DNA from: Burkholderiales bacterium
GTDB lineage: Bacteria; Pseudomonadota; Gammaproteobacteria; Burkholderiales; Burkholderiaceae_C
NCBI GenBank assembly: GCA_031378565.1
Contig: JANNEI010000056.1
Location: 1 to 42,968, forward strand
Reading direction: 5' to 3'
DNA: 42,968 nt
Part shown: positions 17,188 through 36,580 of the stretch, piece after piece
Layout of the letters: each line of letters opens with the position of its first letter
How positions within the stretch are numbered: position 1 is the first letter of the stretch
Translations under genes and position numbers: made by a program
The notes under the pieces: generated by a model
The model's database searches: none
Told to the model about the DNA's origin: nothing
The model's input: the letters and a program-made list of their open reading frames with translations, nothing else

Positions 17188-18147
17188 TCAGCTTCGTGCA
17201 GTCTTTCGACGACGTGCGCTGAAGCCCAACCCAGCCAATGCCAAGCCCACCAACATCAAGCTGGAAGGCTCTGGAACGCGGGTGACGTCAACGTCGCCCG
17301 CGTGGCGCAGGCCAAGTGTGTAGGTTTCCGCACCGTCCAGAAGACCAGTCGTCGCCACGTGCGAACCTGAGCAATCGTAGACCGAGGTCTGGCCCGGAAG
17401 CTGCGCGTTGACGCTACGATTCAAATTGCAAGTATCCGTCGTTTCGACGCCACCAGTGATACCGCCACCCTGGCCGTTAGGAGACCAAGAAAAGACCGTG
17501 TTGCCGTTGCTGTCCTCGATACTGATGACCCATTGCTCAGAGGCGCGAGCCGTACCGAAACTGCCGAGATCAACGTTGGCAAACAGATGACTCAGCGAGT
17601 TAAGACTTATCGTCACGGCTTGGCCGGCTATCAAGGAGAACGAGAACGATGCGGTCAGGCCGAGATTGGATTGGATGGCACCGAAGCCGAGGATCGACGC
17701 GAGCTGCCCTTCGTTGACCACGTGCGCATCTGCGCCGGTGGCAAAGCCGGTTCCGAGCAACGGAGAGTTTTGCAGCAGGGTGTCGGCACGAGCCACATTC
17801 TTGGTCGCGGAGCCGGTTCGGTGGCTGTAGTCATCCTGGCCGAATGCGGCACAGTCGCCAGCACCAACACCACCCACGCCCACGCATTGCTGAGGAAGGT
17901 TCAGCGTTCCGAAAAAGCTCTGGTTGATCGCGTTCGAGGCGATGGTTCCATTCAGGTTGGCCGTCGCATTGCTGCTGTCATTGAAATTCAAGAAATCGAA
18001 CTGAGCGACGTTGAGCGTCGACCCGCCGACTCCGTTTAGGAACTTGAAGTCACTGACTTCCAGAACAGACTGACCCATCACACCTGCATGCGCTGAGCCC
18101 ACCGCACCAATCGCCGCTACCGCAATTGCCAAGAGTTTCGTTTTCAT
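17188..18147 (-). CDS. PEP-CTERM sorting-domain secreted protein (exosortase substrate)
   Basis: Signal peptide MKTKLLAIAVAAIGAVGSAHA. C-terminal VPEPSSLMLVGLALAGLGFSARRRK (PEP motif, TM, basic tail). GAGGAG lies 6 nt before the ATG at 18147. Confidence 0.9.
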   Translation of the reverse strand: MKTKLLAIAVAAIGAVGSAHAGVMGQSVLEVSDFKFLNGVGGSTLNVAQFDFLNFNDSSNATANLNGTIASNAINQSFFGTLNLPQQCVGVGGVGAGDCAAFGQDDYSHRTGSATKNVARADTLLQNSPLLGTGFATGADAHVVNEGQLASILGFGAIQSNLGLTASFSFSLIAGQAVTISLNSLSHLFANVDLGSFGTARASEQWVISIEDSNGNTVFSWSPNGQGGGITGGVETTDTCNLNRSVNAQLPGQTSVYDCSGSHVATTGLLDGAETYTLGLRHAGDVDVTRVPEPSSLMLVGLALAGLGFSARRRKTARS

Positions 18148-18213
18148 CGTCATCTCCTCAAATGGATGCCCGGATCGCAAATGCGCTTTCCGGTTGCTCT
18201 CGCCGACACTAGA

Positions 18214-18228
18214 GCAGGGAGCATGCCA
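18214..18228 (-). promoter_or_regulatory. Sigma-54 promoter upstream of the PEP-CTERM gene
   Basis: The minus strand reads TTGGCATGCTCCCTGCT versus the consensus TGGCAC-N5-TTGC. GG/GC spacing is exact. It resembles nifH-type TGGTATGTTCCCTGCA. About 55-nt leader to the ATG. Confidence 0.55.
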
Positions 18229-18334: not shown

Positions 18335-20443
18335 CTAGGACGCTTTTAGCAAGTCGAGGTCGGACTGAGTTCGGCCTTCGAAAAGCGGAACCAGCAGCGT
18401 CACCTGCGTTCCCTTGTCCGGCTCGCTCTCGACAGAAATCGCGCCGCCAAGCTCCTGCACATACTGAAAACTTTCGTAGGCCCCAATGCCCATGCCGGTC
18501 ACTTTCGTCGTCTGAAACGGCTTGAAGAGTCGATCACGAACGAACTCTGGCGTCATGCCAGAGCCGTTGTCGCCAACTTCGATACGCGCCTGTCCTCCAA
18601 GCTTGCCCAAACGCAGCCAGACCTTTCCCGATGGATCGGTCGCATCGAGCGCGTTTTGCACCATGTGCCCGATGATTCTTTCGAGCCGCTCTTCGTGCCC
18701 GCGCGCGACGACAGGCTCGACCGATCGAACTTCAACGTTTCGACCACGGCTGTTCGCCACGGATTCGATGCGGCGTATCACTCCTGTCAGATCAACCCCG
18801 AAAGCGGTACCGGTGGGTGTGGTTCCTTCGCGCAACTGAGCCATCAGTTGGCGCATTCTTTCCAACGAGTTTTCTACTGTCATCAGCATGTCTTGCTGAA
18901 ACTCAGGATTGGCGTGGAGTCGCTGGGCGTTTTTCATCATCAGCGAGAGTTGCGTGACGATATTCTTCAGGTCATGAACGACAAAAGCAGACATGCGGTT
19001 GAACGCGTCGAACTTGCGAACTTCAAGCAAGGCTTCAGTGGCCACCATTTGTGCCAGGAAACTGGCTGCTTGCCGACTGGCTGTTTTCAACAGGTCATAG
19101 ACCTCCCAATTGGCGTGAACGTTGGTGCGCGCACTCAGCAAGACGACGAAGCCGATCAATTCGTCACCGACGAGCAGGGGAACGATGAGCCAAGCCTGTG
19201 GTGCCAATTGCAACCACGCCGGCATCGTCAAGGATTCATAGCGGCGTGGAGACGAACGGTAGTCCTCCAGATTGACGACGATGCTGTCACGCGCAAGGTA
19301 GTTGCAAAGCGACGATCCGGCATCTTCTTGTTCGTGCATCGGTGCAAAGTTCAGTCGAGCCGTCTGCTGAAAAGTTGCAGCGCCGGGGGCCTTCATCCAA
19401 AGCCCACCGCCCGGGCTTTCGACCAAGTCAGCCAGACCGCGAATGACTTGTTGGCCCATTTCCTGAGGCGTGTTTTGTGCGCAAAGCGCGCGGGTGAACT
19501 TTAGCCATTCCTCTCGATAGTCATAGCGGTAGCGGAAGAAATTCTTGTTGAGAAAAACACGAAGCTTCGCGCGTACTGTCCCGGAAAGCGCGAGTATGCT
19601 CAGTACGATCAGTGAAAGAAAGACGAGGGCAAGTTGCAGCGCTCCTCCCCAGTCGCCACCGAAGAATCTGACGTAATAACCGACAGCGGAAATGAATATC
19701 AGATAACTTCCCGCAATGAGTAGTGTTGCCGAATGGAAGGCTGCGCTTCTTGATACGCGAAGCTGTGAAATCCAGTCGCCGCGGCGCGTCGTAGCAATCA
19801 TCAACAAAGGGGCCATCAGAGCGTGCACTGCGCCGCGGATGCTGAAAGCGTCTAAGTCGACTCGGTCAAAGATGACCGCTTGCGAATAAACGTACAAGTC
19901 GAATGCGAAGGATCCTGCCAAAGCCAAGCACACCGGCTTCGCATTCCAGCGCGAGTCTTGCGCGATATTGCGGAATACTTGCTCGACCAGAACGAGGCCG
20001 AACACCGAGAGGGCCATCGAGCTCAGCGGAACAAGGCGAGACCCTATCGCGGGCAGCATGTCAAACCCCGCCAACGCCTGGGTGCCCACCGCGCCAACGA
20101 TGAGCACGATGCCCAAAATCGGAAGCGCAGACACGTCCCTTGTCTGCCCGACATTCTGTAGGGGGTGGATCAGCAGGCAGAGGAACGCAAACCAGAAACC
20201 GTAGCGAAACAAGTCAGCCATCGCCGCGAGCAGCGTGAGCAGCGGTTCACCGGTCAGGACTCCGACCATCGTCAGGCATCCCCACATCGAACTGAAACCG
20301 ACTGCGCCAAACAGAGCCAAGCCGGCTATGTTGCGAGGCGCGCGCCAGTATCCGAGGCGGATGAGAATGACCACAAATGCGAGATGGACGGCACCGACAA
20401 GGCCGAAGCTCCATGCTGTGAGTGCAATGTTGTGACTGTTCAT
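18335..20443 (-). CDS. prsK: PEP-CTERM system sensor histidine kinase
   Basis: 702 aa. About 8 N-terminal TM segments, a GAF-like middle region, H-box FVVHDLKN, and ATPase motifs DNGSGM and GMGIGAY. Confidence 0.85.
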   Translation of the reverse strand: MNSHNIALTAWSFGLVGAVHLAFVVILIRLGYWRAPRNIAGLALFGAVGFSSMWGCLTMVGVLTGEPLLTLLAAMADLFRYGFWFAFLCLLIHPLQNVGQTRDVSALPILGIVLIVGAVGTQALAGFDMLPAIGSRLVPLSSMALSVFGLVLVEQVFRNIAQDSRWNAKPVCLALAGSFAFDLYVYSQAVIFDRVDLDAFSIRGAVHALMAPLLMIATTRRGDWISQLRVSRSAAFHSATLLIAGSYLIFISAVGYYVRFFGGDWGGALQLALVFLSLIVLSILALSGTVRAKLRVFLNKNFFRYRYDYREEWLKFTRALCAQNTPQEMGQQVIRGLADLVESPGGGLWMKAPGAATFQQTARLNFAPMHEQEDAGSSLCNYLARDSIVVNLEDYRSSPRRYESLTMPAWLQLAPQAWLIVPLLVGDELIGFVVLLSARTNVHANWEVYDLLKTASRQAASFLAQMVATEALLEVRKFDAFNRMSAFVVHDLKNIVTQLSLMMKNAQRLHANPEFQQDMLMTVENSLERMRQLMAQLREGTTPTGTAFGVDLTGVIRRIESVANSRGRNVEVRSVEPVVARGHEERLERIIGHMVQNALDATDPSGKVWLRLGKLGGQARIEVGDNGSGMTPEFVRDRLFKPFQTTKVTGMGIGAYESFQYVQELGGAISVESEPDKGTQVTLLVPLFEGRTQSDLDLLKAS

Positions 20444-20735: not shown

Positions 20736-21377
20736 TCAGCGCGGGCGAATCAGAGGCCAACGCGCCAACCACCGATGTTGCGTCTTGCCCAAGAGGCTGC
20801 GCACAAGCACGAACTCGGTGGCGGTCCAGCGGATCGGCTCGACGGTGTGCTCTACGGCGACCTGGTCGTCGTAGAGCATTGTCATATGGGGCTTGCGACT
20901 GGGTTGAGACTCAAGCCCGGCGCGCTTGAGCGCGAGGCCCAGAATGTGCACAAGCTGGCTGACTGCCGCAGTGTCACGGCCGCACAAGACGAAGGCGTTC
21001 TTGCCGGAACTGCTGCCAGCGAAACTCAGTGCACGATCGAACACGATGTCGATCGGCGGGTGGATGACACCGGCTGCAGCGGCCATGGCCGCACCGACCA
21101 GCGCTTCCGGGACCGCGCCGACATAGTCACCCAAGCTGTGAAGCGTGATGTGCAGACGATCGGTGCGCAGCAGTTGGCCACCCAAGCGGTGGTGCTGCCG
21201 CAGCAGATGGATGGGTTCAGCCATGCGAGCACCGTCACCGGCTTGCGGAAACAACGCGAGGAACAATCGCTGAGCAGGCCGTATGCCATGCGGCCACGCG
21301 GGGGCGATGCTGCGCTTGGGCGGCGGGAATGACGGCGTCTGGGTGTCGAACCCTGGGAGGCTGAACTGTTCGAGCAT
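20736..21377 (-). CDS. 2H-phosphoesterase family protein (LigT / 2'-5' RNA ligase-like)
   Basis: Two H-x-T-x motifs, LHITLHS and PHMTMLY, about 90 aa apart. ATG at 21377 (a GTG lies one codon upstream). Confidence 0.7.
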   Translation of the reverse strand: MLEQFSLPGFDTQTPSFPPPKRSIAPAWPHGIRPAQRLFLALFPQAGDGARMAEPIHLLRQHHRLGGQLLRTDRLHITLHSLGDYVGAVPEALVGAAMAAAAGVIHPPIDIVFDRALSFAGSSSGKNAFVLCGRDTAAVSQLVHILGLALKRAGLESQPSRKPHMTMLYDDQVAVEHTVEPIRWTATEFVLVRSLLGKTQHRWLARWPLIRPR

Positions 21378-21652
21378 CACCGCAGCAGTTTACGTCGACC
21401 GCTGTCCTTGGGCCAGACGAGCCTGCCGTTCACACAAGCAAGATCCGCTGAGAATCGAAAATCGGTAACGTCACTCGCAGTTCGCTCAGCCGAGATGCCT
21501 GAAACGGAGCGTTCCCCCTGAAACAGGGGGGTTCTTGCACCGTCCGACTCAACCATAATTCTTACGCATAACTACTGACCCCGACCCCGACACGAGCCCG
21601 TCTCGATTCAGTTGGCGGCGAGGCGCATGTCTTGACGCGGGGGCGGCCGATC

Positions 21653-23053
21653 ATGAGGGTGTTTCGTCACAACTTGTTGCCTGGTGCCCTCGCCGGGATG
21701 GTGGTCGATCTGACTCTGTGCTTCGTGGCGGTGCTGCTGGCCGCGTCGACGCTGACCAGCCGATACATGACGATTCCCAGTGCGGTCCCGGAACTTCCGC
21801 TGATCCTGTTCGGTGCCACGCAGTTCGCCCTTGTGATGGCCTTGATGTACGCCTTGGTCGGCCTGTACCGCCCCAAACCGATCTCATTGATTGCGGCCAC
21901 TGCACGAACAGCAGTTGCCCTGTGCATCGGTGGATATCTCACCAGCCTCACGCTGCGGATCGTGGCTGATCGAGGGTATATCGAACAGTTGATCCCAGCC
22001 GCTATCGCCTATCTGGGCGTTGGCCTGGTTCTCGTGCGCGGCTGGTTCGGCATCATGCGACATTCGGCTGCCTTGCCGCGAGTACTCATCGTTGGCACCG
22101 GAGCGCAGGCCCATGCCATTGCTGCGGATTTGGGGGTGCCAGGTCGCTCCGCGCGCAACGTCGTAGGCTTCTACGCCACTTCAGATCAATCGGCAGTGTC
22201 TGGACCACGGAATGACAAATTCCGGGTGTTTCCGAACAGTTCGTCCCTGACCGATCTGGTCTCTCGCCACGACATCCAAGAAATCATCGTCGCTGTTCGC
22301 GAGCACCGAGGTGGCGGAGTTCCGATGGACCAGCTTCTGGAGTGCCGGATTCGCGGCGTGTCTGTTCTCGATCTCGCTGGGTTCTGCGAAAGAACAAAAT
22401 GGGAAGTGCCGATCGACAGCCTGAAGAGCAGTTGGCTGGTCTATGGCCAAGGCTTCGTTCAAGGTGACTTTCGCCGCTTCGTCAAGCGCTTGTTCGATAT
22501 CGTAAGCTCCTTGGTGCTGCTGATCCTGCTGGCCCCCGTGATGCTTCTTACGATGACCCTGATTCGGCTCGACAGCCCTGGATCGGTGATCTATCGCCAG
22601 GCACGCGTTGGTGTTGGCGGCCGAATCTTCATGTGCATGAAGTTCCGCAGCATGTATGCCGATGCCGAGCAAGATGGAGTGGCGCGGTGGGCAACCAAGG
22701 ATGACTCTCGGATCACGCCCGTTGGATCGTGGATCCGCAAAATGCGCATCGACGAGTTACCTCAGTTGCTGAGTGTCTTAAGCGGGGAGATGAGCTTGGT
22801 CGGGCCCCGGCCGGAGCGCCCCAGCTTCGTTGATCAGCTGAAGGAAAGCATACCCTTCTACGAGTTACGACATTCCGTAAAGCCGGGTGTTACCGGATGG
22901 GCGCAGGTTAGATATCACTATGGTTCTTCGCTTGAGGATGCGCGTCGCAAGCATCAGTTCGATTTATACTACGTCAAAAATAATTCTCTCTTTCTTGATA
23001 TTCTCGTGTTGATTGAGACGGTCAGCGTCGTATTGTTTCATGAGGGGCAGTGA
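21653..23053 (+). CDS. Priming sugar transferase (bacterial sugar transferase family, PEP-CTERM-associated EpsB type)
   Basis: MRVFRHNLLPG start. N-terminal TM segments. C-terminal domain with DELPQL, GPRPERP and KPGVTGWAQV. Confidence 0.85.
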   Translation: MRVFRHNLLPGALAGMVVDLTLCFVAVLLAASTLTSRYMTIPSAVPELPLILFGATQFALVMALMYALVGLYRPKPISLIAATARTAVALCIGGYLTSLTLRIVADRGYIEQLIPAAIAYLGVGLVLVRGWFGIMRHSAALPRVLIVGTGAQAHAIAADLGVPGRSARNVVGFYATSDQSAVSGPRNDKFRVFPNSSSLTDLVSRHDIQEIIVAVREHRGGGVPMDQLLECRIRGVSVLDLAGFCERTKWEVPIDSLKSSWLVYGQGFVQGDFRRFVKRLFDIVSSLVLLILLAPVMLLTMTLIRLDSPGSVIYRQARVGVGGRIFMCMKFRSMYADAEQDGVARWATKDDSRITPVGSWIRKMRIDELPQLLSVLSGEMSLVGPRPERPSFVDQLKESIPFYELRHSVKPGVTGWAQVRYHYGSSLEDARRKHQFDLYYVKNNSLFLDILVLIETVSVVLFHEGQ

Positions 23054-23178: not shown

Positions 23179-23832
23179 ATGAACGGTTCGATTCGGGACG
23201 ATGCTGCGGATGATCATCAGCAGCAAGCAATTTCTTTGATTGAGATGCGCACTGACCAGAAACCCGGAATGTCCACCCGTCGCGGCTTGATTCGGGCAGG
23301 TCTCAAAGCAAGCCCGGTAATTCTTACCTTGGCCAGTCGACCCGTGCTCGCTTGGCAGTGCAAGACCCCGTCGGCGCACGCGTCAGCGAACCTGAGCAAC
23401 CACGCTCAACAAACCTGGCCCGACTCATGCACTGCCACATCTACTTCGTGGTCGAACAAATGCACAGGGGTTGGTTCGGCCAAGGATGCATGCGGAGCCA
23501 CCCTTTCATGGCCGACTGGTGTGACCAAAAACACCCAATGCAACACCTTGATGGGTTCTGGGAGTTCCAGTTCGATTACCACCAAGCTTGCCAGTGGAAC
23601 CGGATTCGAGAAAACATTGATCACGTCGATGTTGAACGTGTTGACTGGGCGTGTCCCCGGGCAGTGTGTGACCAGCCAAAACATCAAGGACATGTGGTTT
23701 GCTGGCAATGCGGGTACGGGATACCAGCCGTCCGCAGGAATTTCGTGGTCGAAGCAGAACACGGTCGACTTCCTTCACAACAATTGGGTCGCAACCGTCT
23801 CGCAATTCGGTGGAAATCCGCCGACTGCATGA
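23179..23832 (+). CDS. Hypothetical Cys/Ser/Thr/Gly-rich protein with a twin-arginine-like signal
   Basis: AGGAG lies 7 nt upstream of ATG 23179. Residues 31-58 are MSTRRGLIRAGLKASPVILTLASRPVLA. Six Cys in the mature part. I recognise no family. Visibly AT-richer than the flanks. Confidence 0.6.
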   Translation: MNGSIRDDAADDHQQQAISLIEMRTDQKPGMSTRRGLIRAGLKASPVILTLASRPVLAWQCKTPSAHASANLSNHAQQTWPDSCTATSTSWSNKCTGVGSAKDACGATLSWPTGVTKNTQCNTLMGSGSSSSITTKLASGTGFEKTLITSMLNVLTGRVPGQCVTSQNIKDMWFAGNAGTGYQPSAGISWSKQNTVDFLHNNWVATVSQFGGNPPTA

Positions 23833-23862
23833 CAAGGCAAACTTCGGATCCGATTGCCGCCG

Positions 23863-24159
23863 ATGGTGCCAACGTGCTGGTTGCTCGATAGGCCGGAAAA
23901 TTTCGTTGATCGGGAGTGGGCCGGCGAAATCGTCGTCTTGAACACCCGCACCGGCGACACTCACCTGCTCTCACCTGCGGCCTCGGCGATCTATCGACTT
24001 CTCCAGATCGGCCCACAATCCCACGTCACGCTGTCAGAGCGACAGGATGCTGAATCTAGCCTAGCAGACCGGGCGGATCTGCCTGAGTTGGTGGAATCAA
24101 CACTGCAAGAGTTCTTCCGACTGGGATTGATCACGTCCTCATCCGTTGAAAATTGCTGA
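23863..24159 (+). CDS. PqqD-family peptide-chaperone-like protein (HPr-rel-A system type)
   Basis: About 98 aa. WLLDRPENFVDREWAGEIVVLNTRTGDTHLLSPAASAIYRLL fits the PqqD/RRE-like pattern (beta strands then helix). ATG 23863. A TTG at 23854 is also possible. Confidence 0.65.
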   Translation: MVPTCWLLDRPENFVDREWAGEIVVLNTRTGDTHLLSPAASAIYRLLQIGPQSHVTLSERQDAESSLADRADLPELVESTLQEFFRLGLITSSSVENC

Positions 24160-25084
24160 CCTCTCTCGGCCCGAACTCGCGAGGCGCATGGCCCGCGGGG
24201 ATTTGCTGATCCAACTCTCGCCGTTCGTTGCCAGGATCGAATCTCGGATCGACTCGGTGGTGTCGGGCATCAGGATCATGTACGCCGAGTTTTCCGTCAT
24301 CGGCGACGACAGGTTCGCGGACTTTCACATTCGCGTTGCACTGCCGAGGGGCCTCCGGCGCTGGCTGCGGCCTCAGGCGAATTTCTACTTTGACGGCAGA
24401 GCAGCATTCAAGCCGTTGCCCCTTGCACAGGCATACCCGATGCTCGAGTGGGGATTGAACTGGTGCATCGCAGCACACTCGCACCAGTTCCTGATCGCGC
24501 ACGCAGCGGTGGTCGAGAAGAATGGGCTGGCGGTCATCTTGCCGGCTCCGCCCGGTTCGGGCAAAAGCACCTTGTGCGCAGGATTGGTAAGCCGCGGCTG
24601 GCGGCTATTCTCTGACGAACTCGCGCTGTATGACCTGCAGACTCGCCTGATGCAGGCGTTGTCTCGCCCACTCAATCTGAAGAACGAATCGATTGCCGTG
24701 ATTCACCGGTTCGAGCCAGCGGCGACAATGACGTCCTCGGTACCGCACACCGCGAAAGGCACTGTGGCGCTGATGGCACCTCCAGACGACAGTGCGCGAC
24801 GGGTGCTTGAACAAGCGATACCAGCGTGGATCGTCTTTCCGCGCTATCAGGCTGGCGCACCGGCAAAGTTCGAATCCTGCAGCAAGGCCCGTGCATGCTG
24901 GATGCTTGCCGAGCAATCATTCAACTACAACATCCATGGACGCGCCGGCTTCGACGCTCTAGCGCACATGGTCGACCGCTGTGACTGCTACGAATTCACC
25001 TACGGCGATCTCGAAGAGGCGGTCAGCGCCTTTTCCACCTTGCGATCACCCTCTGCGTCATGCATCACCGAGACCTCGTCGTAG
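24146..25084 (+). CDS. HprK-related kinase A (P-loop, HPr kinase C-terminal-domain-like)
   Basis: Walker A LPAPPGSGKSTLCAGL followed by FSDE, as in HPr kinase-like folds. A TTG start at 24146 overlaps the PqqD-like stop. Alternative ATG at 24188. Confidence 0.7.
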   Translation: MKIADLSRPELARRMARGDLLIQLSPFVARIESRIDSVVSGIRIMYAEFSVIGDDRFADFHIRVALPRGLRRWLRPQANFYFDGRAAFKPLPLAQAYPMLEWGLNWCIAAHSHQFLIAHAAVVEKNGLAVILPAPPGSGKSTLCAGLVSRGWRLFSDELALYDLQTRLMQALSRPLNLKNESIAVIHRFEPAATMTSSVPHTAKGTVALMAPPDDSARRVLEQAIPAWIVFPRYQAGAPAKFESCSKARACWMLAEQSFNYNIHGRAGFDALAHMVDRCDCYEFTYGDLEEAVSAFSTLRSPSASCITETSS

Positions 25085-26262
25085 AAGCGCTGCTCAGTCC
25101 TGACCGCGCCGCCACTTACAGTGAGCCGCAATGGGACCTACTGATTCGACAGGCGCGCCGCGCCAACCTGCTGGGCCGACTGGCGCTGTGCATCGATGGC
25201 GAACGGGGCGCTTTGCGGGCCGCCTGGCAGCACCTGCTATCCGCACGGGTCGTCGCGGAGCGCCAGCAAGGTGCGATTCGCTGGGAAATCGAATGCATTC
25301 GCCGCGCCCTTGCCCCGACCGGTGTTCCCCTGGTGTTGCTCAAGGGTGCGGCTTACGCCATCGCAGGCTTGCCGGTTTCGAACGGCCGCATGTTCTCGGA
25401 CATCGACGTCATCATTCCAAAACAAGCAGTGCCCACTGTCGAATCGGCCCTGATGATGAATGGGTGGGTCGGTAGCCACCATGATTCGTACGACCAGCGG
25501 TACTACCGAAAATGGATGCACGAGATCCCGCCGATGCAGCATCTGCGGCGCGGCACGGTGATCGACGTGCACCACGCAATCCTCCCGGAGACAGCCCGAA
25601 TACGCGCGAACTCCTCGGCCATGCGTGAAGCCGCCGTCGCCGTTCCCGGCCACGCCGATGTGTTTGTTTTCGCACCGGCGGACATGGTTCTGCACAGCGC
25701 GACCCATTTGTTCCATGAGGGTGAACTCGACAATGGCCTGAGGGACTTGTTCGATCTCGACAGCCTGCTTTGTCATTTCGGCGCGACCCCGGGATTTTGG
25801 GAGCAGTTGCCCGTGCGGGCTGCCGAACTCGGCCTGCAGCGGCCATTGTTCTACGCACTGCGTTACGCCATTGTTCTACTGGGGACTCCGGTGCCAGAGC
25901 CTGTGATCACTGCGGCGCAGCAAGGGGCACCGCATCCCGCCGCCATGCCGCTGATCGACTTCTGCTTCCTGAGAGGTCTGCGAGTCGACCACCCGACCTG
26001 TGCAGATGGCTGGACACCACTGGCGCGATGGCTCCTGTACGTCAGATCGCACTGGCTGCGGATGCCGTTCTTCCTGTTGCTGGTTCACCTGGCGCGCAAG
26101 GCCATCGTGCCGTCAAGACAGAACGAAGCGGAAGCAGCCGCACCGCTCGCGCACACGCCGCAGCACGAGGCAGATGAACAACAGACCGTTCGGGCCGCAC
26201 GCAGCGGTGCGGTCGACGATCTATCAGAGTCGGCACGCAACGGTCATTCACAGACTTTGTGA
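25060..26262 (+). CDS. Nucleotidyltransferase family protein (uncharacterised NTP_transf_5-type, Pol-beta fold)
   Basis: LLKGAAY...NGRMFSDIDVIIP (G-S..D-x-D NTase motif), then VIDVHHAI. The ATG overlaps the kinase 3' end by 25 nt. Confidence 0.7.
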   Translation: MHHRDLVVEALLSPDRAATYSEPQWDLLIRQARRANLLGRLALCIDGERGALRAAWQHLLSARVVAERQQGAIRWEIECIRRALAPTGVPLVLLKGAAYAIAGLPVSNGRMFSDIDVIIPKQAVPTVESALMMNGWVGSHHDSYDQRYYRKWMHEIPPMQHLRRGTVIDVHHAILPETARIRANSSAMREAAVAVPGHADVFVFAPADMVLHSATHLFHEGELDNGLRDLFDLDSLLCHFGATPGFWEQLPVRAAELGLQRPLFYALRYAIVLLGTPVPEPVITAAQQGAPHPAAMPLIDFCFLRGLRVDHPTCADGWTPLARWLLYVRSHWLRMPFFLLLVHLARKAIVPSRQNEAEAAAPLAHTPQHEADEQQTVRAARSGAVDDLSESARNGHSQTL

Positions 26263-26994
26263 ACCGTGCAACCGGCCCACGATACCCGCCTCTTCTTCCA
26301 CTGAAAAAAAATATGGATACAGCGAACGTTCGTCCTTGACGGAGTCGCCCTGCCCCGCAAACTTGCTGATCTGGTCTTGCGCATGTCCCAATTCAAGACA
26401 CAACAGTACCGCTGGCGCGTTGACGCGCAGATTCAGTCTTTCAGAACCGATCACCTTGAACCCGAGCATTCGCTCATAGTAGCGTACATGCCTGGGATTA
26501 ACCTCGATCAATACCGATTGAAAATTCTTCAGTCGGTGTGCAAATATATATGCAACATGGAAAAGAGAAGCCAGTACACGTTTGGAGCGTGCCTTGGTAT
26601 CAACAGCCAACTTCGTAAATTCACAAATTCTATGTCCGGCCTTTCGCAATTCGTCCGCTTCTTTAAGAAATATATTATCCACTAAAAGGCCCTGCTCTGT
26701 GTCAAAACGGACGGTCAACGTCCCAATGATCTGTTCCTTGTCACTGGCAACCAGCGTAATGCGATTCGATGAATCATCGGTAGTCGACGTAGTAATATTA
26801 TAACCTCGTGTCGCGTACATCCTGCTGACTAGAATGCCAGCCGAACTCCGATGACCGAAGGAATCTGCAAACCGAATCTTGAAAATTCCCCGATCAATCA
26901 CCTGCTCGGCCGCTTCATCCGGAGAATGATCGGCAAGAATCGAGCGCAGCGGGTGGCCCACATCGAACGGGGCACCGATGATCGTATTGTTCAT
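26248..26994 (-). CDS. GNAT-fold long-chain N-acyl amino acid synthase-like acyltransferase (FeeM-like / exosortase-associated)
   Basis: Start MNNTIIGAPF at 26994 (AGGGA upstream). RMYATRGY, IGTLTVRFD, CEFTKLAVD and VNPRHVRYYERMLGF match my memory of FeeM-type NAS cores. Confidence 0.6.
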   Translation of the reverse strand: MNNTIIGAPFDVGHPLRSILADHSPDEAAEQVIDRGIFKIRFADSFGHRSSAGILVSRMYATRGYNITTSTTDDSSNRITLVASDKEQIIGTLTVRFDTEQGLLVDNIFLKEADELRKAGHRICEFTKLAVDTKARSKRVLASLFHVAYIFAHRLKNFQSVLIEVNPRHVRYYERMLGFKVIGSERLNLRVNAPAVLLCLELGHAQDQISKFAGQGDSVKDERSLYPYFFSVEEEAGIVGRLHGSQSL

Positions 26995-27289
26995 GTTCTT
27001 TTCCCTGGAATCCGTCGCCGGATGTCTTGTGCCGGACCCGCGCTTCAAAAGCCGGTTGCCCTGCCGTTGGTGGCCGAGACAAACGTGTGACATTTTATCG
27101 CAGCAACCGACCGCTGTGGCCGAGAAAGAAGCGCGCGAAAGCCGGTCAGCCGTTTCCAGCGGTCGATTCGCGCTATTGATCTACGGCAGGCCACGGCGGG
27201 GTCGCTGGACTGCATCGCCTGCGGTGCGTATCATTTCTCGGGTGGCGCGTCGCGAGCCGCTCCATTCCCTTCATGTCAGGGAGAAACCC

Positions 27290-28162
27290 ATGCCAAACGC
27301 CAAACCAGAGTTCTCGTACGATGAGGCATTTTCAAGGAATATTGGATGGGTGACGGAAGCTGAACAGCGTCAGCTGAGGAATTCCAGGGTGTGTATTGCC
27401 GGGCTCGGGGGTGTCGGCGGTGTCTATCTTCTGACTTTGGCAAGACTTGGAATCGGGGCTTTCAGCGTCGCCGATTTCGATACCTTTTCGCTTGCCAACT
27501 TCAATCGTCAGGCAGGTGCGATGCTGAGTTCCATTGACCGTCCGAAGACCGATGTCATGGTCGAGATGGCACGCGACATCAATCCGAATCTGGATATCAG
27601 AATTTTCCGTGACGGTCTGAGTCAGGAAAATCTGGGCGATTTTCTTGCCGATGGGGATATCTATCTGGACGGTCTCGATTTTTTTGCACTCGATATCCGT
27701 CGCCGCCTGTTCTCCATCTGTGCTGAAAAGGGGATTCCCGCCACCACCGTCGCTCCACTCGGAATGGGTGCCGCACTGCTCAATTTCGTGCCGGGCAAGA
27801 TGACGTTCGAGGAGTATTTCGGCCTGGGCGGCCATACTGAGGGAGAGCAGGCCCTGCGGTTCCTGATCGGCTTGTCGCCCGCCATGCTGCAGATGACTTA
27901 TCTGGTCGATCCGACGAGAGTCGATCTGGAAAGGCGCAGGGGGCCGTCCACGATCATTGCGGTGCAACTTTGCAGTGGCATCGCCGCCGCGCAAGTGCTC
28001 AAGCTGCTGCTCAAGCGTGGCGATGTGGTCGCCGCGCCATCGGGGCTGCATTTCGATGCCTTCCGCAATCTGCTCAGGCGAACCTGGCGCCCGGGTGGCA
28101 ACAAGCATCCGATGCAACGGCTGGTGCTGCGCATCGCCCGAAAGCGGCTGCGGGTCAGGTAG
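27290..28162 (+). CDS. ThiF/MoeB/HesA-family E1-like adenylyltransferase
   Basis: ATG 27290 preceded by GGGAGA. CIAGLGGVGGVYLLTLARLG nucleotide-binding loop, ADFDTFSLANFNRQ. No CxxC zinc motifs seen. Confidence 0.8.
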   Translation: MPNAKPEFSYDEAFSRNIGWVTEAEQRQLRNSRVCIAGLGGVGGVYLLTLARLGIGAFSVADFDTFSLANFNRQAGAMLSSIDRPKTDVMVEMARDINPNLDIRIFRDGLSQENLGDFLADGDIYLDGLDFFALDIRRRLFSICAEKGIPATTVAPLGMGAALLNFVPGKMTFEEYFGLGGHTEGEQALRFLIGLSPAMLQMTYLVDPTRVDLERRRGPSTIIAVQLCSGIAAAQVLKLLLKRGDVVAAPSGLHFDAFRNLLRRTWRPGGNKHPMQRLVLRIARKRLRVR

Positions 28163-28215
28163 TTGCACACTCCAGCCTCGACGCAGCAACCCAACCTGAC
28201 TCCGAGGCAACCTCC

Positions 28216-29322
28216 ATGGCCATACCATCCACCGTCGAGCAGATTCTTGACCTCAGCCGGTGGGCACCCAGCGGCGACAACACGCAGCCCTGGCGCTTCG
28301 AGATCGTCGATGAAGGGCACGTCGTCGTACACGGCTTTGATACCCGGGATCACTGCGTCTACGATCTCGACGGACACCCGAGCCAGATCTCGTTGGGAGC
28401 GCTGATCGAAACGATTTCCATCGCCGCGAGTGCGCATGGCTTGCACACCGCAGCCTCCCGACGCAGCGGACTTCCCGACACCACACCCACCTTCGATCTT
28501 CGTTTCTCGTCCGATCCGCGAACGCAGGCCGATCCGCTGGTCACGCACATCCCCACACGCAGCGTGCAGCGACGCCCGATGCGCCTGCGCCCGTTGAGTG
28601 CAGCCGAAAAGCTCGCGCTCGAGGCATCGGTCGGCAGTGCCTGTCAGGTGCAGTGGATTGAAGGGTTCAGCGCGCGAAGCCGGGCCGCACGTCTGATGTT
28701 CAACAACGCCAGACTTCGATTGACCATGCCTGAGGCCTATGAAGTCCATCGGGATGTCATCGAATGGAACGCGAGGTTCAGCGAAGACCGGGTGCCGGAT
28801 CAGGCGCTCGGGGTCGACCCGATGACCGCCAGGCTGATGCACCACGTGCTTGGAAGCTGGGATCGCGTCAAGTTCTTCAACCGGTTTTTGGCTGGCACCG
28901 TGGCCCCGCGCCTTCAGATGGATCTGATCCCAGGGATTTTTTGCGCCGCACATTTCGTGCTCCTGGCCAGGCGGCGCCCACAATCGATTGACGACCATGT
29001 CGCCGCCGGCAGGGCCGTGCAGCGGTTCTGGCTGACGGCAACATCTCTCGGCCTCGTGATGCAGCCGGAGCTGACGCCGTTGATCTTCTCGCGCTATGTT
29101 CGCGACGGCGTCGCATTTTCCGCAGAACCCGGGATGGAGCAGACAGCGCGCGCTCTGGCGCTGCAACTGGAGGCGCTGATCGGCGCAGAAAGCACCGGTC
29201 TGGCGGTGTTCTTGGGTCGCATCGGTGCCGGCACCGCGGCCGTGTCGCGATCGACCCGCAAGCCGCTGGACCAGTTGATGGTTGCAACCGGCCGGATCAC
29301 TGAGCCTTCAGCAGCTGATTGA
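28216..29322 (+). CDS. Tandem nitroreductase-fold protein (Acg-like FMN-binding family)
   Basis: ATG 28216 preceded by GAGG. ILDLSRWAPSGDNTQPWRFEIV. Its 368-aa length fits a two-lobed nitroreductase-like protein. Confidence 0.7.
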   Translation: MAIPSTVEQILDLSRWAPSGDNTQPWRFEIVDEGHVVVHGFDTRDHCVYDLDGHPSQISLGALIETISIAASAHGLHTAASRRSGLPDTTPTFDLRFSSDPRTQADPLVTHIPTRSVQRRPMRLRPLSAAEKLALEASVGSACQVQWIEGFSARSRAARLMFNNARLRLTMPEAYEVHRDVIEWNARFSEDRVPDQALGVDPMTARLMHHVLGSWDRVKFFNRFLAGTVAPRLQMDLIPGIFCAAHFVLLARRRPQSIDDHVAAGRAVQRFWLTATSLGLVMQPELTPLIFSRYVRDGVAFSAEPGMEQTARALALQLEALIGAESTGLAVFLGRIGAGTAAVSRSTRKPLDQLMVATGRITEPSAAD

Positions 29323-32068
29323 CCTCCTCGTAACCCGAAAATGCCGGGCCGATCTTCGCCAGCTTTTCCAGTTCATCCCGGGCGCGGACCTTGTCTGCGG
29401 CCTTGAGGTAAATCTTCGCAAGGGTCAGCCGCAGCGCGGGGTTCTGCGGCTGAATGTCCAGCGCCTTCTTTTGCACCGAGACCGCACGCTCGATCTGATT
29501 CTCATCGGCAAGAATCATTGCCAGCGTGTCCATGAACAGCGGCTGGCCGGGCTGCAACGCGTTTGCTTTCTCGGCGTAGCCGAGCGCATTCTTCTTGTTG
29601 AGCCTGGACGTGAGCCACGCCACGTTGTTGAGGGCCGCCGCATCGTCGGGCCGGATCTGCACAACGCCCAGATAGTTCGCTTCGGCTTGCGCATAGTCCC
29701 GCTGCGCCAGCGCCACATCGCCCAGATGAAACAGGAAACCGGCGTCTTTCGGAAAATCCTTCATCCAAGCGGCTGCAAACCTGTCCGCCTCCGCTCGGCG
29801 GGCGGCGGTCAGCAAGACCGCGTGGAGCTTCACTGCGAGGTCAGTGGACTTCTTTTTCTTCAGGCCGGCACGGTACGCATTGGCAGCGCCATCGAAGTTC
29901 TTCAACGACGCCTCGATGTCCCCTTCGAACAGGTAGCCCACACCGTCGGTGCCGCGCTGCTTCTGCACCGCCTGCGCCAACGCCAGTGCCTCCTGGGAAT
30001 GCCCTGCGGCAAGTTCGAGGGCCACCAGATTGCGCTGCGCTTGCAGGGAATCCGGCGAGATCGCCAGCGCCCGCTTCAAGCTTTGCACCGCCATGTCGTT
30101 GCTCTTGCGCGCCACATGAACATCGGCCAGCAGCAGGTGCGGATACGCCGATTGCGGAAGCAGCGCGGCCAGCTTGGTGTACGAACTGACCGCCTGATTG
30201 AAATCGCCCGACAGCGCCTGCACCCGGCCCACCGCCTCCAGCAATTGCGGGCTGTCGGGCACGGCGGCCAAGGCGTCCTGGGCTGCCGCCAGTGCCTGCT
30301 TGAGGTCTTTGCGCTTGAGGTGGTGATCAATCAACAGCAGGCGTGGTGTGACCTCCGTCGGGTTGAGCTTGATGGCGCTGGAGATGAGCTGCGCCACTTC
30401 CTCGGGGCTGCCGCCCGCCGCGGCGCGCAGCCCGGCGATGGCCAGCAAGGCTTTGTGATTCGACGGCTCAACTGCCAACAGCTTGTCGAAGCGCTCTTTC
30501 GCCTGCGCAATCTTTCCTTCGGCGAGGTCGATCGCGGCAAGGCTGTCGACGGCCGGAAAGTACGCCGCGTCAACCGCCACAGCACGCTCGAAGCTCTTGC
30601 GGGCACCGGCAACGTCTTGCCGGGACATCTGGATTTTCCCCCGCAGGCTCGGTGCCAACGGCTTGTCCGGCTGCTTGCGCTCAAGCGCGTCCACCGCCTT
30701 CAGCGCACCGTCCAGTTCGTTGCGCTGAAAGTGCGCGCTGATCAGGGCCAGGTCGGCCGTCGTGCCGCTGTCCGACGCGGCGATGCCTTGCAGTTCACTG
30801 AATGCAATGTCCGCGTTGCCACTGGACAGACGCGTCAACGCCAGCGCCGTGCGACTCTTGACATCCTTCGGGTTCAACTTGGCCGCCCGCGAGTAATAGT
30901 CCGTCGCCTTGCCCATCTCGCCCGCCTGAAGATGGGCCTCGGCCAGCAGCGAGAAAATCTCGGCGTCCGGACCGATCGCTTCGACCACCGGCAGGAGAAC
31001 GACGATCGCCTTGGCGGGTTGGCCCGATCGCAGATAGGTCTGTGCAAGCAGGCGACGGGCAGACCGGTGGTTCGGCGCGCGTTGCAGGGTCTGACTCAGG
31101 TACTTCTCGGCCTGTCCGAATGAGCCCAGTTCGTACTCGACCGAGCCAGCCAGATGCAATGCCCGGGAATAGTCGGGGGCAGAGCGCAACAGCTCCTGGG
31201 CCAGTTGCCGGGCCTTCGCGAGATCGTGGCGGCGCAGCGCCAGCAAGGCCTCGAAGTACTTGGTTTGCGGGTGGTTCGCAAACAACTTGCGCATCTCCTC
31301 CAACTGCGCCTGCGCGGCCGTCAGGTCATTCTTGCCGAGCAAGACCGAGATGACGGCGGTGTGTGCGGGGAGCAAGTCTTTCTTGATGCCCAGTGCTCGC
31401 CGGTAAGCTTCGAGGGACGCAGCCGCGTCGCCTTTTCCCAGGTACAGCAAGTCGCCCTTGAGCTGCCAGGCCTCGGGCTCGTCGGGGCTGCTCTTCAGCA
31501 CCTTGTCGATCATCTGCAACGCGCCGTCGGGGTCTCCGTTGCGGGCGAGCATCTGCGTCTGCACGATCAGCGCGGGCGCGAAGTCCGGAACTGCCTTCAG
31601 CGCCGCGGCCAGCGCGTCGCTCGCTTGCTGCCGGTTGCCGAGCCTGGCGTAGGCGACTGCGATCGAGGTCTTCAGGTCGGCAGCGGCAGCGGGCTCCGGC
31701 AAATCCACCAAGCCATATTGCTCGACAAGCGTCTTCACCTGGCCTTCGGCGACCAGGGCCTGTGCGAGGATCGGCAACACCGCTGCCGCCGGATGATTCA
31801 AGTCCAGCGCACGTCGAAGCTCCGCTGAAGCGCCGCTGACATCGCCAACAGCGAGCAACGTCTTGCCCAGCAGGAAGCGCGCTTCTGCCTGGTTCGGACT
31901 CTTCTGCAGCGCCGTCTTCAGCTGGATGACGGCCGCGTTGCGGTCGTTGCTGGCCAGATAAGTTTTTGCCGAGGCGACGAGGTCTTCCGGGCTCTGTGCG
32001 CCACAACTCGCAAGCACCAGGGTCAGGGCAACGATGGCAGGGATGAGCGGGTGGCGTTGTTGCTTCAT
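29297..32068 (-). CDS. prsT: PEP-CTERM system TPR-repeat lipoprotein
   Basis: 923 aa. Lipobox LVLASCG. TPR repeats throughout. Confidence 0.85.
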   Translation of the reverse strand: MKQQRHPLIPAIVALTLVLASCGAQSPEDLVASAKTYLASNDRNAAVIQLKTALQKSPNQAEARFLLGKTLLAVGDVSGASAELRRALDLNHPAAAVLPILAQALVAEGQVKTLVEQYGLVDLPEPAAAADLKTSIAVAYARLGNRQQASDALAAALKAVPDFAPALIVQTQMLARNGDPDGALQMIDKVLKSSPDEPEAWQLKGDLLYLGKGDAAASLEAYRRALGIKKDLLPAHTAVISVLLGKNDLTAAQAQLEEMRKLFANHPQTKYFEALLALRRHDLAKARQLAQELLRSAPDYSRALHLAGSVEYELGSFGQAEKYLSQTLQRAPNHRSARRLLAQTYLRSGQPAKAIVVLLPVVEAIGPDAEIFSLLAEAHLQAGEMGKATDYYSRAAKLNPKDVKSRTALALTRLSSGNADIAFSELQGIAASDSGTTADLALISAHFQRNELDGALKAVDALERKQPDKPLAPSLRGKIQMSRQDVAGARKSFERAVAVDAAYFPAVDSLAAIDLAEGKIAQAKERFDKLLAVEPSNHKALLAIAGLRAAAGGSPEEVAQLISSAIKLNPTEVTPRLLLIDHHLKRKDLKQALAAAQDALAAVPDSPQLLEAVGRVQALSGDFNQAVSSYTKLAALLPQSAYPHLLLADVHVARKSNDMAVQSLKRALAISPDSLQAQRNLVALELAAGHSQEALALAQAVQKQRGTDGVGYLFEGDIEASLKNFDGAANAYRAGLKKKKSTDLAVKLHAVLLTAARRAEADRFAAAWMKDFPKDAGFLFHLGDVALAQRDYAQAEANYLGVVQIRPDDAAALNNVAWLTSRLNKKNALGYAEKANALQPGQPLFMDTLAMILADENQIERAVSVQKKALDIQPQNPALRLTLAKIYLKAADKVRARDELEKLAKIGPAFSGYEEVNQLLKAQ

Positions 32069-32098: not shown

Positions 32099-33463
32099 CT
32101 ACTGGATCGACAAGCGACGCATCAGGTCGTAGAGCGTGGGGCGGGTCACACCGAGTATCTCGGAGGCTTTCACGATGTTGCCATCGGCCCGGGCCAGTGC
32201 AGCGACAACGGCACCGCGCTCTGCCTTCTCGCGCACCATGCGCAAGCCCAGCAACGGTTCGCCCTCGGGCTCCGCGCTGGCCGATCGCGGCAGGCCAAGG
32301 TCGTCGCAGGTCACGCGGCTGCCCTCCGCCATGATTGCCACCCGCTTGATGGCGTTCAGCAGCTCGCGAACGTTGCCCGGCCACGCATAGCCATCGATCG
32401 CCGTCAGCGCCTCGTCCGAAAAGCTCATCGAGCTGCGGTTCTGCTCGCGCGCAAACCGCCTGAGGAAGGCCTGGGCCAGCATCACCGAATCGCCCTGTCG
32501 CGCGCGCAGCGGGGGGATGTCGATCTCGATCTCGGCCAAGCGGTAGTAGAGGTCTTGCCTGAAACGGTTTGCCTTGATGAAGTCGGGCAGGTCCTGGTGG
32601 GTCGCGCAGACCACCCTGACATCGATCGGAATCTCCTGGCGTCCACCGATGCGCTCGATGGTCCGCTCCTGCAGAAAGCGCAGCAACTTGGCCTGCAACG
32701 ACGGCGGCAGGTCGCCGATTTCATCGAGCATCAGCGTGCCGCCGTTGGCCGTCTCGATCTTGCCGATGGTGCTTTTCGCCGCGCCGGTGAACGAGCCTTT
32801 CTCGAAGCCGAACAGTTCGCTTTCGAGCAGGTTCTCGGGGATCGCCGCGCAGTTGATTGCAACGAACTTGCCGGTGCGCCTCGACGCCAGATGCAGCGCC
32901 TGCGCCAGCACTTCCTTGCCGGTGCCGCTTTCGCCCAGCAGCAGCACGGTCGCGTTGGTCGGTGCCACCTTCTCGACCGTGCGGCAGATTCTCAGCAATT
33001 GCGGGTCCCGCGTCACCAGGCCGGCCAGCGCGTCGGGCTGCTGCATCTCTCGCAGGTGCCGGTTTTCGCTTTGCAACTCGAAAAGGCGGAACGCCCGCCC
33101 AACGATCAGGCCGAGCGTATCGGGCTCGAACGGTTTTGCAAGAAAGTCGTAGGCCCCGAGGTCAATCGCCCGCAAGGCGTTGGCCTGGTCGTTCTGGCCG
33201 GTCAGCACGATGACCTTGACGTTCGGGTCGAGTTCGAGCACCTGCGCCAGCAGCTTGAATCCTTCCTGCACCGTGTCGGGGTCGGGCGGCAGTCCCAGGT
33301 CCATCGTGACCACGGCGGGTGAATGGCGCCGGAACTGCGCCAACGCGCTGACCCGGTCGTTCGCGGTGACCGAATCGAAGCGATCGAGCGACCACTTGAT
33401 CTGCTTTTGCAGTGCGAGGTCGTCCTCGACAATCAGCAACAGCGACCGTTTTTCCGGTGTCAT
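32099..33463 (-). CDS. prsR: PEP-CTERM-box sigma-54-dependent response regulator
   Basis: Receiver LLIVEDD...TMDLGLPPD. AAA+ GESGTGKE and FGFEKGSFTGA (GAFTGA-type). C-terminal Fis-type HTH ASEILGVTRPTLYDLMRRL. ATG 33463 preceded by GGAG. Confidence 0.9.
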   Translation of the reverse strand: MTPEKRSLLLIVEDDLALQKQIKWSLDRFDSVTANDRVSALAQFRRHSPAVVTMDLGLPPDPDTVQEGFKLLAQVLELDPNVKVIVLTGQNDQANALRAIDLGAYDFLAKPFEPDTLGLIVGRAFRLFELQSENRHLREMQQPDALAGLVTRDPQLLRICRTVEKVAPTNATVLLLGESGTGKEVLAQALHLASRRTGKFVAINCAAIPENLLESELFGFEKGSFTGAAKSTIGKIETANGGTLMLDEIGDLPPSLQAKLLRFLQERTIERIGGRQEIPIDVRVVCATHQDLPDFIKANRFRQDLYYRLAEIEIDIPPLRARQGDSVMLAQAFLRRFAREQNRSSMSFSDEALTAIDGYAWPGNVRELLNAIKRVAIMAEGSRVTCDDLGLPRSASAEPEGEPLLGLRMVREKAERGAVVAALARADGNIVKASEILGVTRPTLYDLMRRLSIQ

Positions 33464-33688
33464 GGTGTCTCCGACGGAAGGGGGCGTCATGCGGAACCAG
33501 CGAACCACATCCGAAGACGCACGACACCGGTTGCAGACAGAAACTTACCGCGAAGATACAGGTTCTTCATCCGTCGTGGCATCCCTTGACAACGGGGCTG
33601 GCGCGCGGCCGGGCGGCGGTGCCGCGCCATGCCGGAACGAGTTCACGCCAGCCGCCGATTCATTCCACGCCGGATCGACAGGAGCCGT

Positions 33689-36500: not shown

Positions 36501-36580
36501 GTCGGAGGAAGGAGAGACCGGCAGCGTCGGACTGAAAAAGTCGTGGCGTGGTGCGTCTCTCAAAATGCTGGATGAGAAAG

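Follow-up and report, generated by a model that had tools for sequence, protein, structure and literature searches.

The window analysed here is a stretch of 42,968 nucleotides from a Burkholderiales bacterium (contig JANNEI010000056.1, assembly GCA_031378565.1). It carries an XrtA/PEP-CTERM exopolysaccharide (EPS) locus, in which a block of seven genes is located at positions 23179-29322. A first examination of the letters without database searches (hereafter the sequence-only reading) had described this block as a single composite island. We find that it very probably consists of two independent modules, module A (23179-26262) and module B (26248-29322), because its sub-modules are distributed independently of each other among kinase- and ThiF-anchored loci, a pattern that the sequence-only reading had itself listed among the grounds for its refutation. 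The seven-gene block is real as an observation but it is not a single novel pathway. The best explanation of the whole, which we regard as probable, is that of two accessory cassettes: module A would be an HPr-rel-A system provided with its own substrate, a protein exported by the twin-arginine translocation (Tat) pathway, and module B an acyl-oxazolone cluster. Both modules fill the same variable slot of the XrtA/PEP-CTERM locus, with the gene of the priming glycosyltransferase on one side and prsT on the other. On this reading, module B adds a member to a characterised pathway, in a context that the literature on this pathway does not discuss, and module A belongs to a catalogued, uncharacterised system. 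The loci of the PEP-CTERM/exosortase type are responsible for the flocs and biofilms that environmental and wastewater bacteria form, yet most of their accessory genes lack an explanation. An apparently exotic island is now split into two tractable units.

Gene content and distribution of the block

The proteins of the window were assigned to families by Pfam and NCBIfam scans with curated bit-score cutoffs. These matches bear out the families and the strands that the sequence-only reading had given for the seven open reading frames (ORFs) of the block. Independent gene calls on identical public contigs predict proteins of 217, 98, 298, 400, 248 (minus strand), 290 and 368 amino acids and reproduce the intergenic gaps of 125, 30, 295 and 53 bp. 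As already stated in that reading, the canonical core enzymes of peptides that are synthesised on ribosomes and then modified post-translationally (RiPPs), namely YcaO, LanM, lasso cyclase and radical SAM proteins, are all absent from the block. It had also noticed no short precursor ORF; our 30-aa and 20-aa ORF lists over the gaps of 125, 30 and 295 bp contain no credible one, and no small ORF recurs with the kinase cassette of module A across 80 related loci.

These 80 loci were obtained by a scan anchored on the module A kinase, with one genome per species: at least 561 species were matched, 80 loci were kept and all the proteins of the window were mapped onto them. A reverse scan, anchored on the ThiF-like protein of module B, provided 80 metagenome loci. 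Loci with at least 5 kb on both sides were considered as well-flanked; they number 58 in the kinase-anchored set and 19 in the ThiF-anchored set. The kinase and the nucleotidyltransferase of module A are adjacent in all of the 80 kinase-anchored species. The genes of module B seldom accompany them: among the 58 well-flanked kinase loci, a FeeM homolog is found in eight, a close ThiF in four, the oxidase in three and all three together in two. In the other direction, the kinase cassette is near ThiF in none of the 19 well-flanked loci and in one of the 80 loci overall (L160). The closest relative of the kinase that was seen (L164, 79% identity) belongs to a locus where module A is present and where FeeM, ThiF and the nitroreductase are absent, the gene order being glycosyltransferase, 220-aa protein, kinase, nucleotidyltransferase, trypsin-like peptidase and PrsR. 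In Thiobacillus-type genomes, the four genes of module A are bordered by prfA-prmC and by a glutaredoxin gene, and PEP-CTERM genes are absent from the neighbourhood. Finally, gene fusions join genes of module B to each other, and none was seen that joins them to a gene of module A.

Module A: the HPr-rel-A cassette and its candidate substrate

Module A is a member of the system named HPr-rel-A in NCBIfam. The cutoffs of both equivalog models (TIGR04352 and TIGR04353) are passed, the genes overlap, and a NTP_transf_5 gene follows, as in all 80 related loci. Literature searches for HprK-related kinase, TIGR04352/TIGR04353 and SynChlorMet found no paper naming HPr-rel-A. The second gene of the module encodes a protein of the PqqD family, whose members are peptide-binding and recognition modules of the type called RiPP recognition element (RRE); NCBIfam names TIGR04353 a peptide chaperone. 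The stop of this gene overlaps the start of the kinase gene, and an ORF of 80-130 aa ends at the kinase start in 70 of the 80 loci. Its counterpart in L166 was pre-annotated as PF05402 (PqqD), and the strand 'SGDTHLL' is conserved. The kinase matches positions 2-280 of the 280 positions of TIGR04352. Its family has its own Pfam entry (PF27840) and more than 6,600 homologs at E<=1e-5; the Walker A motif PPGSGKST is intact and at least 95% conserved, and the search of the PDB gave a weak P-loop match to structures of HPr kinase/phosphorylase. The nucleotidyltransferase gene overlaps the kinase gene by 25 nt and PF14907 is found beside the kinase in 80/80 loci. Its catalytic motifs are intact as well: the G-G/S and DxD motifs, with K95-G96 and D114-x-D116, are at least 95% conserved. 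The protein has no relative by sequence in the PDB. A trypsin-like serine peptidase (PF13365) flanks the cassette in 19 of the 80 species (e.g. L006:7855-8652 and L164:5198-5992) and is a possible processing partner.

The first gene of module A encodes the 217-aa protein, whose mature part contains 27% of Ser and Thr and six Cys. Homologs were detected by iterated profile search among the ORFs upstream of the kinase. They are directly upstream of the PqqD-HprKA pair in 78 of the 80 species, i.e. in 78 of the 79 evaluable loci: one of the two remaining loci is truncated and the other (L020) is genuinely without this gene. This protein is thus a near-universal fourth component of HPr-rel-A, which is an addition of this analysis. 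The family has 861 representatives at E<=1e-3 in a library of 1.84 billion proteins, and Pfam/NCBIfam scans of 101 members gave only sporadic weak TAT_signal matches. From the N- to the C-terminus, the protein is composed of a variable hydrophilic segment, a twin-arginine signal, a Cys/Ser motif and a helical domain.

Conservation was calculated from 101 sequences with an average identity of about 30%. In the signal, Arg34 is conserved in 98% and Arg35 in 100% of the sequences (the RR pair is present in 178 of 180 family members), and the h-region 'LTLASRPVLA' is moderately hydrophobic and unusually conserved. In the motif that follows, the conservation of Cys61, Ser65, Ser69 and Ser73 is of 98%, 99%, 100% and 89%, respectively. 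The mean frequency of the top residue is 0.65 in the signal and 0.58-0.65 over residues 31-73, against 0.35 in the folded domain. In the AlphaFold2 model built with the 101 sequences, residues 1-80 are disordered, including the motif (predicted local distance difference test, pLDDT, below 50 for the segment), and residues 85-205 have a pLDDT above 90. A Foldseek search of this model in the PDB gave no match (best E 7). The conservation of residues 31-73 is that expected for a recognition and modification site rather than for an ordinary signal peptide. Because this predicted-disordered stretch is more conserved than the folded domain, the 217-aa protein is the likely substrate of the module A enzymes, with Ser65, Ser69 and Ser73 as candidate sites. 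The widespread HPr-rel-A system (at least 561 species, see above) thereby gains a concrete candidate substrate and candidate modification sites. The sequence-only reading had proposed that an exosortase-related substrate is modified; the likeliest protein substrate is instead encoded by the first gene of the block itself.

From the gene families and the synteny, which are directly observed, we infer every biochemical step of the following scheme, which we consider plausible though tentative. In the cytoplasm, the PqqD-like chaperone would bind the conserved signal/leader segment of the 217-aa protein, the Tat signal peptide doubling as the leader that the chaperone recognises. The P-loop kinase would then phosphorylate one or more of the residues Ser65, Ser69 and Ser73 in the disordered post-signal segment. 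The nucleotidyltransferase would subsequently elaborate the phosphoserine, for example by addition of a sugar onto the phosphate or of a nucleotidyl group, and the finished protein would be exported via Tat. The Tat pathway suits proteins that are modified in the cytoplasm.

The precedent for this scheme is given by lasso peptide clusters (paeninodin, PadeK; pseudomycoidin, PsmK/PsmN), where the genes of an RRE, an HPr-kinase homolog and a nucleotidyltransferase occur side by side, and where the kinase phosphorylates a Ser before the nucleotidyltransferase adds a hexose to the phosphate (PMC8498205). Module A shares with these clusters the association of an RRE (here PqqD-like), an HPr-kinase homolog and a nucleotidyltransferase. 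It differs in that a lasso cyclase, a B2 protease and a short precursor are all missing, and by its candidate substrate, which is a full-length Tat-exported protein. Some points weigh against the scheme. The lasso kinases use the C-terminal Ser of a short peptide, whereas the conserved serines of the 217-aa protein are internal and its C-terminus is not conserved. The conservation of the signal segment could reflect constraints of the Tat pathway or of a dedicated chaperone alone. In addition, the components of HPr-rel-A are uncharacterised.

Membership of known peptide systems was rejected. Neither a lasso cyclase nor a B2 leader peptidase is present among the seven genes, and there is no precursor ORF to place the block among the lasso clusters. 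The two Asn-synthase-like genes of the window score 239 and 254 bits with the lasso cyclase model, for a cutoff of 525, and are of the XrtA-system amidotransferase type. The machinery of thiazole/oxazole-modified microcins (TOMM) was discarded as well, with no YcaO among the scanned ORFs and a flavoprotein that matches the Acg/Rv1355c families and not SagB.

According to a rather doubtful alternative, module A acts on another substrate (a nucleotide, a peptide encoded elsewhere, or a sugar or intermediate of EPS synthesis), and the Tat protein is a co-transcribed periplasmic partner such as a binding protein or a matrix protein. The P-loop fold of HPr kinase indeed has relatives among small-molecule kinases, the uncharacterised NTP_transf_5 family lacks a sequence relative in the PDB, the cassette is often located in polysaccharide loci, and the confident globular domain of the 217-aa protein needs an explanation of its own. 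However, the PqqD family binds peptides, TIGR04353 is named a peptide chaperone, and the cassette comes with no small ORF. Within the 217-aa protein, conservation is highest in the predicted-disordered N-terminal segment, where one Ser is invariant; a plain signal peptide would not typically look like this. The synteny of its gene is also near-universal (78/79 loci). These observations weigh against the alternative. A broader proposal, which we find attractive but on balance unlikely, is that HPr-rel-A is an RRE-guided modifier of a full-length protein, held in the cytoplasm until the kinase and the nucleotidyltransferase have placed a phospho-linked decoration on the C-x3-S-x3-S-x3-S segment. 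The protein would then be exported via Tat, and would either work in the matrix of PEP-CTERM proteins and EPS or serve PrsK as a cue in the periplasm. If true, the idea of a Tat signal read by an RRE would extend RiPP-style leader recognition to whole secreted proteins.

Module B: a probable acyl-oxazolone cluster

We assign module B, with good confidence, to a split acyl-oxazolone biosynthetic cluster, the chemistry of which is established for homologs and is transferred to the window by homology, gene order and fusions. The FeeM-type synthase would N-acylate a probably aromatic amino acid. The ThiF-like enzyme would adenylate the free carboxylate and cyclise the N-acyl amino acid, and the nitroreductase-type flavin oxidase would desaturate the product with O2, giving an N-acyl oxazolone lipid.

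The acyltransferase gene is divergent from the ThiF gene (295 bp) and convergent with the nucleotidyltransferase gene of module A, and its product retrieves the FeeM structure 2g0b from the PDB with an E-value of 1e-9. The ThiF-like protein is composed of 290 amino acids and is reduced to a bare core (about residues 15-268) with no peptide-clamp extension. The GxGGxGG (GLGGVGG) and DGLD motifs and the residues Asp123, Asp127 and Asp130 are invariant in 15 homologs, showing that the ATP-binding/adenylation motifs are intact. Its closest solved structures are ThiF, TcdA, MoeB and PaaA; TcdA cyclodehydrates an N-carbamoyl amino acid. The oxidase gene follows on the same strand at 53 bp. The oxidase aligns with positions 352-718 of the Rv1355c-family model, which is the C-terminal oxidase section (116 bits), and with the Acg family (121 bits). 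The three proteins cover consecutive sections of PRK14852 (989 positions): 83-226 for the acyltransferase (GNAT), 312-586 for ThiF and 601-788 for the oxidase. The ThiF section is matched not only in PRK14852 but also in PRK14851 and in the Rv1355c family, and the ThiF and oxidase of the window match consecutive sections of PRK14851, a ThiF plus oxidase model. Natural fusions verified with Pfam were found: FeeM-ThiF in Duganella (543 aa, L049), and ThiF-oxidase of 670 aa (L058) and 676 aa (P0122, 85% identical to the ThiF of the window).

The same arrangement recurs in the ThiF-anchored set. An acyltransferase stands beside ThiF, co-directional or divergent, in 44 of the 59 loci with upstream DNA (FeeM-type in 30, TIGR03694-type in 17), and the oxidase is directly downstream of ThiF in 35 of 52 loci. 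Two distinct synthase families, FeeM-type and TIGR03694-type, thus fill the same slot beside the ThiF-oxidase pair in different genomes. The acyltransferase of the window is not a member of TIGR03694, the family of the PEP-CTERM-associated synthases: it gave no match to this model even at E<=10 (cutoff 111.95 bits), and the positive control L138:1804-2628 scored 199 bits.

Three characterised pathways have the same trio of a FeeM/acyl-homoserine lactone synthase-type acyltransferase, a ThiF-like cyclase that depends on ATP and a flavin oxidase of the nitroreductase superfamily. The OxzA protein of Pseudoalteromonas rubra acylates the nitrogen of tyrosine or phenylalanine and OxzB, a ThiF-nitroreductase di-domain protein, converts the product into an oxazolone with ATP (bioRxiv 10.1101/2020.06.11.147165). 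In Mycobacterium tuberculosis, acylation is due to TyzA, ATP-dependent cyclisation to the ThiF homolog TyzB, and desaturation with O2 to the oxidase TyzC of the nitroreductase superfamily; the tyzC-tyzB operon adjoins tyzA on the opposite strand, and the subcluster of single-domain TyzC oxidases includes Betaproteobacteria (PMC10404671). The proteins Rv1356c/Rv1355c correspond to TrzA/TrzS and make tryptazolones, and the authors remark on the likeness of oxazolones to acyl-homoserine lactone signals (PMC12856293). Module B resembles tyzACB in that one operon encodes the cyclase and the oxidase as two distinct proteins, with a divergent acyltransferase gene. Fused forms resembling OxzB/TrzS occur among its close relatives. 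In contrast to the Oxz, Tyz and Trz clusters, module B is embedded in an XrtA/PEP-CTERM exopolysaccharide locus beside prsT, and the three oxazolone papers cited above make no mention of exosortase or PEP-CTERM.

Against this assignment, it has to be considered that the acyltransferase of module B is a bona fide member of the Pfam FeeM family, the descriptions of TyzA and OxzA speaking only of a structural likeness to FeeM, that the likeness to OxzB, TyzB and TyzC appears through NCBIfam models only, and that the oxidase does not reach the cutoffs set for whole proteins, which is to be expected of a single domain. With the acyl-oxazolone pathway at hand, the peptide-tailoring role that the sequence-only reading had considered for the FeeM/ThiF/nitroreductase trio is not needed.

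The link between N-acyl amino acid synthases and exosortases goes back to Craig, Cherry & Brady 2011 (cited in PMC11072679 and PMC7293339). In Methylomonas LW13, the disruption of such a synthase gene abolished a polysaccharide band (PMC11072679). The enzyme of the window differs from the PEP-CTERM-associated synthases of TIGR03694 by its membership of the FeeM Pfam family. Joining the exosortase-synthase literature with the oxazolone literature is a small new point: the N-acyl amino acid synthases of exosortase loci are tied to a recently solved pathway, which suggests where the function of oxazolone lipids in the cell could be sought. In many genomes, the PEP-CTERM-associated N-acyl amino acids of the 2011 study might even be intermediates of such lipids.

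Further observations concern the relatives of module B. The oxidases encoded beside ThiF (L081-L160) fall into two classes of identity with the protein of the window, about 21-31% and 45-70%. The classes are split even where the ThiF proteins are 72-78% identical, which suggests an exchange of oxidase subfamilies between similar clusters. The locus L081 has the same ThiF-oxidase-PrsT-PrsR order, with a ThiF 81% identical to that of the window; in the 727 bp that precede ThiF (L081:1-727), FeeM could not be recognised. In L113, L125, L133 and L137, genes for LolA-like proteins, MacB/FtsX-type ABC transporters and DUF1302 proteins recur near the ThiF-oxidase pairs, and PEP-CTERM proteins and Wzz/Poly_export genes are also nearby. 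The LolA-like, MacB-FtsX and DUF1302 genes are a possible export machinery for the lipid product.

One pathway or two modules

The alternative to two modules is a single pathway in which all seven genes lipidate or tailor a peptide or protein, or make one acylated signal sensed by PrsK. For instance, FeeM would acylate the secreted protein or a PEP-CTERM substrate and ThiF would activate the C-terminus of that protein. The seven genes are contiguous in the window, and both modules are recurrently recruited beside prsK/R/T, which are nearby in 25 of the 58 well-flanked kinase loci and in 5 of the 19 well-flanked ThiF loci. Against a strict separation, it is observed that at least four other lineages also have modules A and B side by side, in the interval from the nucleotidyltransferase gene to prsT, namely Massilia polaris (L047), Duganella sp. 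P38 (L049), a Gallionellaceae metagenome-assembled genome (L058) and L160; some functional interplay within PEP-CTERM loci is therefore possible. A single pathway is nevertheless improbable. Co-occurrence is rare in both directions (2/58 and 0/19), the closest relative carries module A without module B, the fusions unite genes of module B and none was seen that takes in a gene of module A, and the trio is fully accounted for by a characterised small-molecule pathway. Moreover, the compact ThiF core leaves no room for the peptide-clamp domain of MccB or PaaA. From the composite tailoring proposed in the sequence-only reading, the modification of a protein or peptide and the acylated small molecule survive as ideas, whereas their union in one pathway of seven genes does not. 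The product of either module may conceivably feed PrsK, as that reading had suggested for an acylated signal; the observations speak neither for nor against it.

A mobile or anti-phage defence island, acquired horizontally and without relation to the function of the locus, can practically be set aside as an explanation of the block. In its favour, the GC content drops at 15-29 kb to 0.53-0.63, the flanks having 0.64-0.70, and ThiF is weakly and generically similar to E1-E2 defence proteins. However, this low-GC stretch takes in core EPS genes in addition to the block, direct or inverted repeats at its flanks are only at chance level, no integrase or transposase is present among the annotated ORFs, and a PADLOC scan gave no match for six of the seven block proteins and, for ThiF, only a generic E1 similarity of at most 36 bits.

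The XrtA/PEP-CTERM locus and its surroundings

The context recognised in the sequence-only reading is that of a canonical XrtA/PEP-CTERM exopolysaccharide locus: the equivalogs of XrtA, PrsK, PrsR, PrsT, EpsB_2 and the PEP-CTERM protein all score above curated cutoffs. Its remark that the block interrupts the Prs genes is equally correct, PrsK being split from PrsT/PrsR. EpsB_2 and the seven genes stand together between PrsK and PrsT/PrsR, and the block itself lies between the EpsB_2 glycosyltransferase and PrsT (Table 1).

Table 1. Position of the main features of the window, with the family match or the criterion on which each is based.
Feature	Positions	Strand	Basis
PrsK histidine kinase	18335-20443	-	TIGR02916, 790 bits
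XrtA/PEP-CTERM priming glycosyltransferase (EpsB_2 family), directly upstream of module A	21632-23053	+	TIGR03013, 460 bits
Module A gene 1, 217-aa protein of unnamed family, candidate substrate	23179-23832	+	No Pfam/NCBIfam family
Gene 1, predicted Tat-type signal peptide, residues 31-58, STRRGLIRAGLKASPVILTLASRPVLA	23269-23352	+	RR and moderately hydrophobic h-region
Gene 1, post-signal motif W-Q-C61-KTP-S65-AHA-S69-AN-L-S73 (C-x3-S-x3-S-x3-S), proposed modification site	23353-23397	+	Conservation
Module A gene 2, PqqD-family (RRE-type) peptide chaperone, 98 aa	23863-24159	+	TIGR04353 PqqD_rel_X, 48.9 bits (cutoff 35)
Module A gene 3, HprK-related kinase A, P-loop kinase	24146-25084 (alternative start 24188)	+	TIGR04352, 390.4 bits (cutoff 200)
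Module A gene 4, NTP_transf_5 nucleotidyltransferase, 400 aa	25060-26262	+	PF14907, E 3e-53
Module B gene 1, FeeM-type N-acyl amino acid synthase, 248 aa	26248-26994	-	PF21926, 168 bits (cutoff 27), E 2e-49
Module B gene 2, ThiF-like adenylating cyclase (putative role of TyzB / OxzB N-domain)	27290-28162	+	PRK08223, 429 bits (cutoff 266)
Module B gene 3, nitroreductase-superfamily flavin-dependent oxidase, 368 aa (putative role of TyzC / OxzB C-domain)	28216-29322	+	PF00881
PrsT	29297-32068	-	TIGR02917, 801 bits
PrsR	32099-33508	-	TIGR02915, 697 bits

The first 18 kb of the window (minus strand) contain two Asn-synthase-like amidotransferases, the stp3 and stp2 glycosyltransferases and an XrtA-EpsI fusion, together with a FemAB-like protein, a deacetylase, an ATPase and an outer-membrane protein. 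A tyrosine autokinase, a chain-length determinant, an export protein and an EDSAP-1 PEP-CTERM protein are also encoded there. The two Asn-synthase-like amidotransferases are paralogs, located at 1074-2999 (-) and 4230-6179 (-). One passes the XrtA-system model (1093 bits, cutoff 817) and the second falls below it with 550 bits and may have a diverged role. A sigma-54-like -24/-12 element, TGGCATGCTCCCTGC, is found at 18214-18228 (-), about 35 nt upstream of the EDSAP-1 PEP-CTERM gene (17188-18180). The sigma-54 control of the flanking functions, as formulated in the sequence-only reading, therefore has a consensus-like match before the PEP-CTERM protein gene only, and the promoter scan detected no comparable site ahead of the seven-gene block.

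Between prsK and the priming glycosyltransferase gene, a LigT/2H-phosphoesterase-like gene encodes a protein of 213 aa (20736-21380, minus strand; TIGR02258, 37.7 bits, below the cutoff). It has no counterpart in the 80 kinase-anchored loci nor in L165 and so looks like a lineage-specific insertion. Beyond prsR, at 33689-36632 (-), a UdgX-family uracil-DNA-binding protein fused to a TIGR03915 domain is encoded with its partner, a radical SAM DNA-repair protein; this pair has apparently no relation to the EPS locus. Finally, at 37046-38762, a homolog of the GntA-like heme-dependent N-hydroxylase (NF041366, 264 bits for a cutoff of 145) is encoded beside a urea-amidolyase-associated-like protein.

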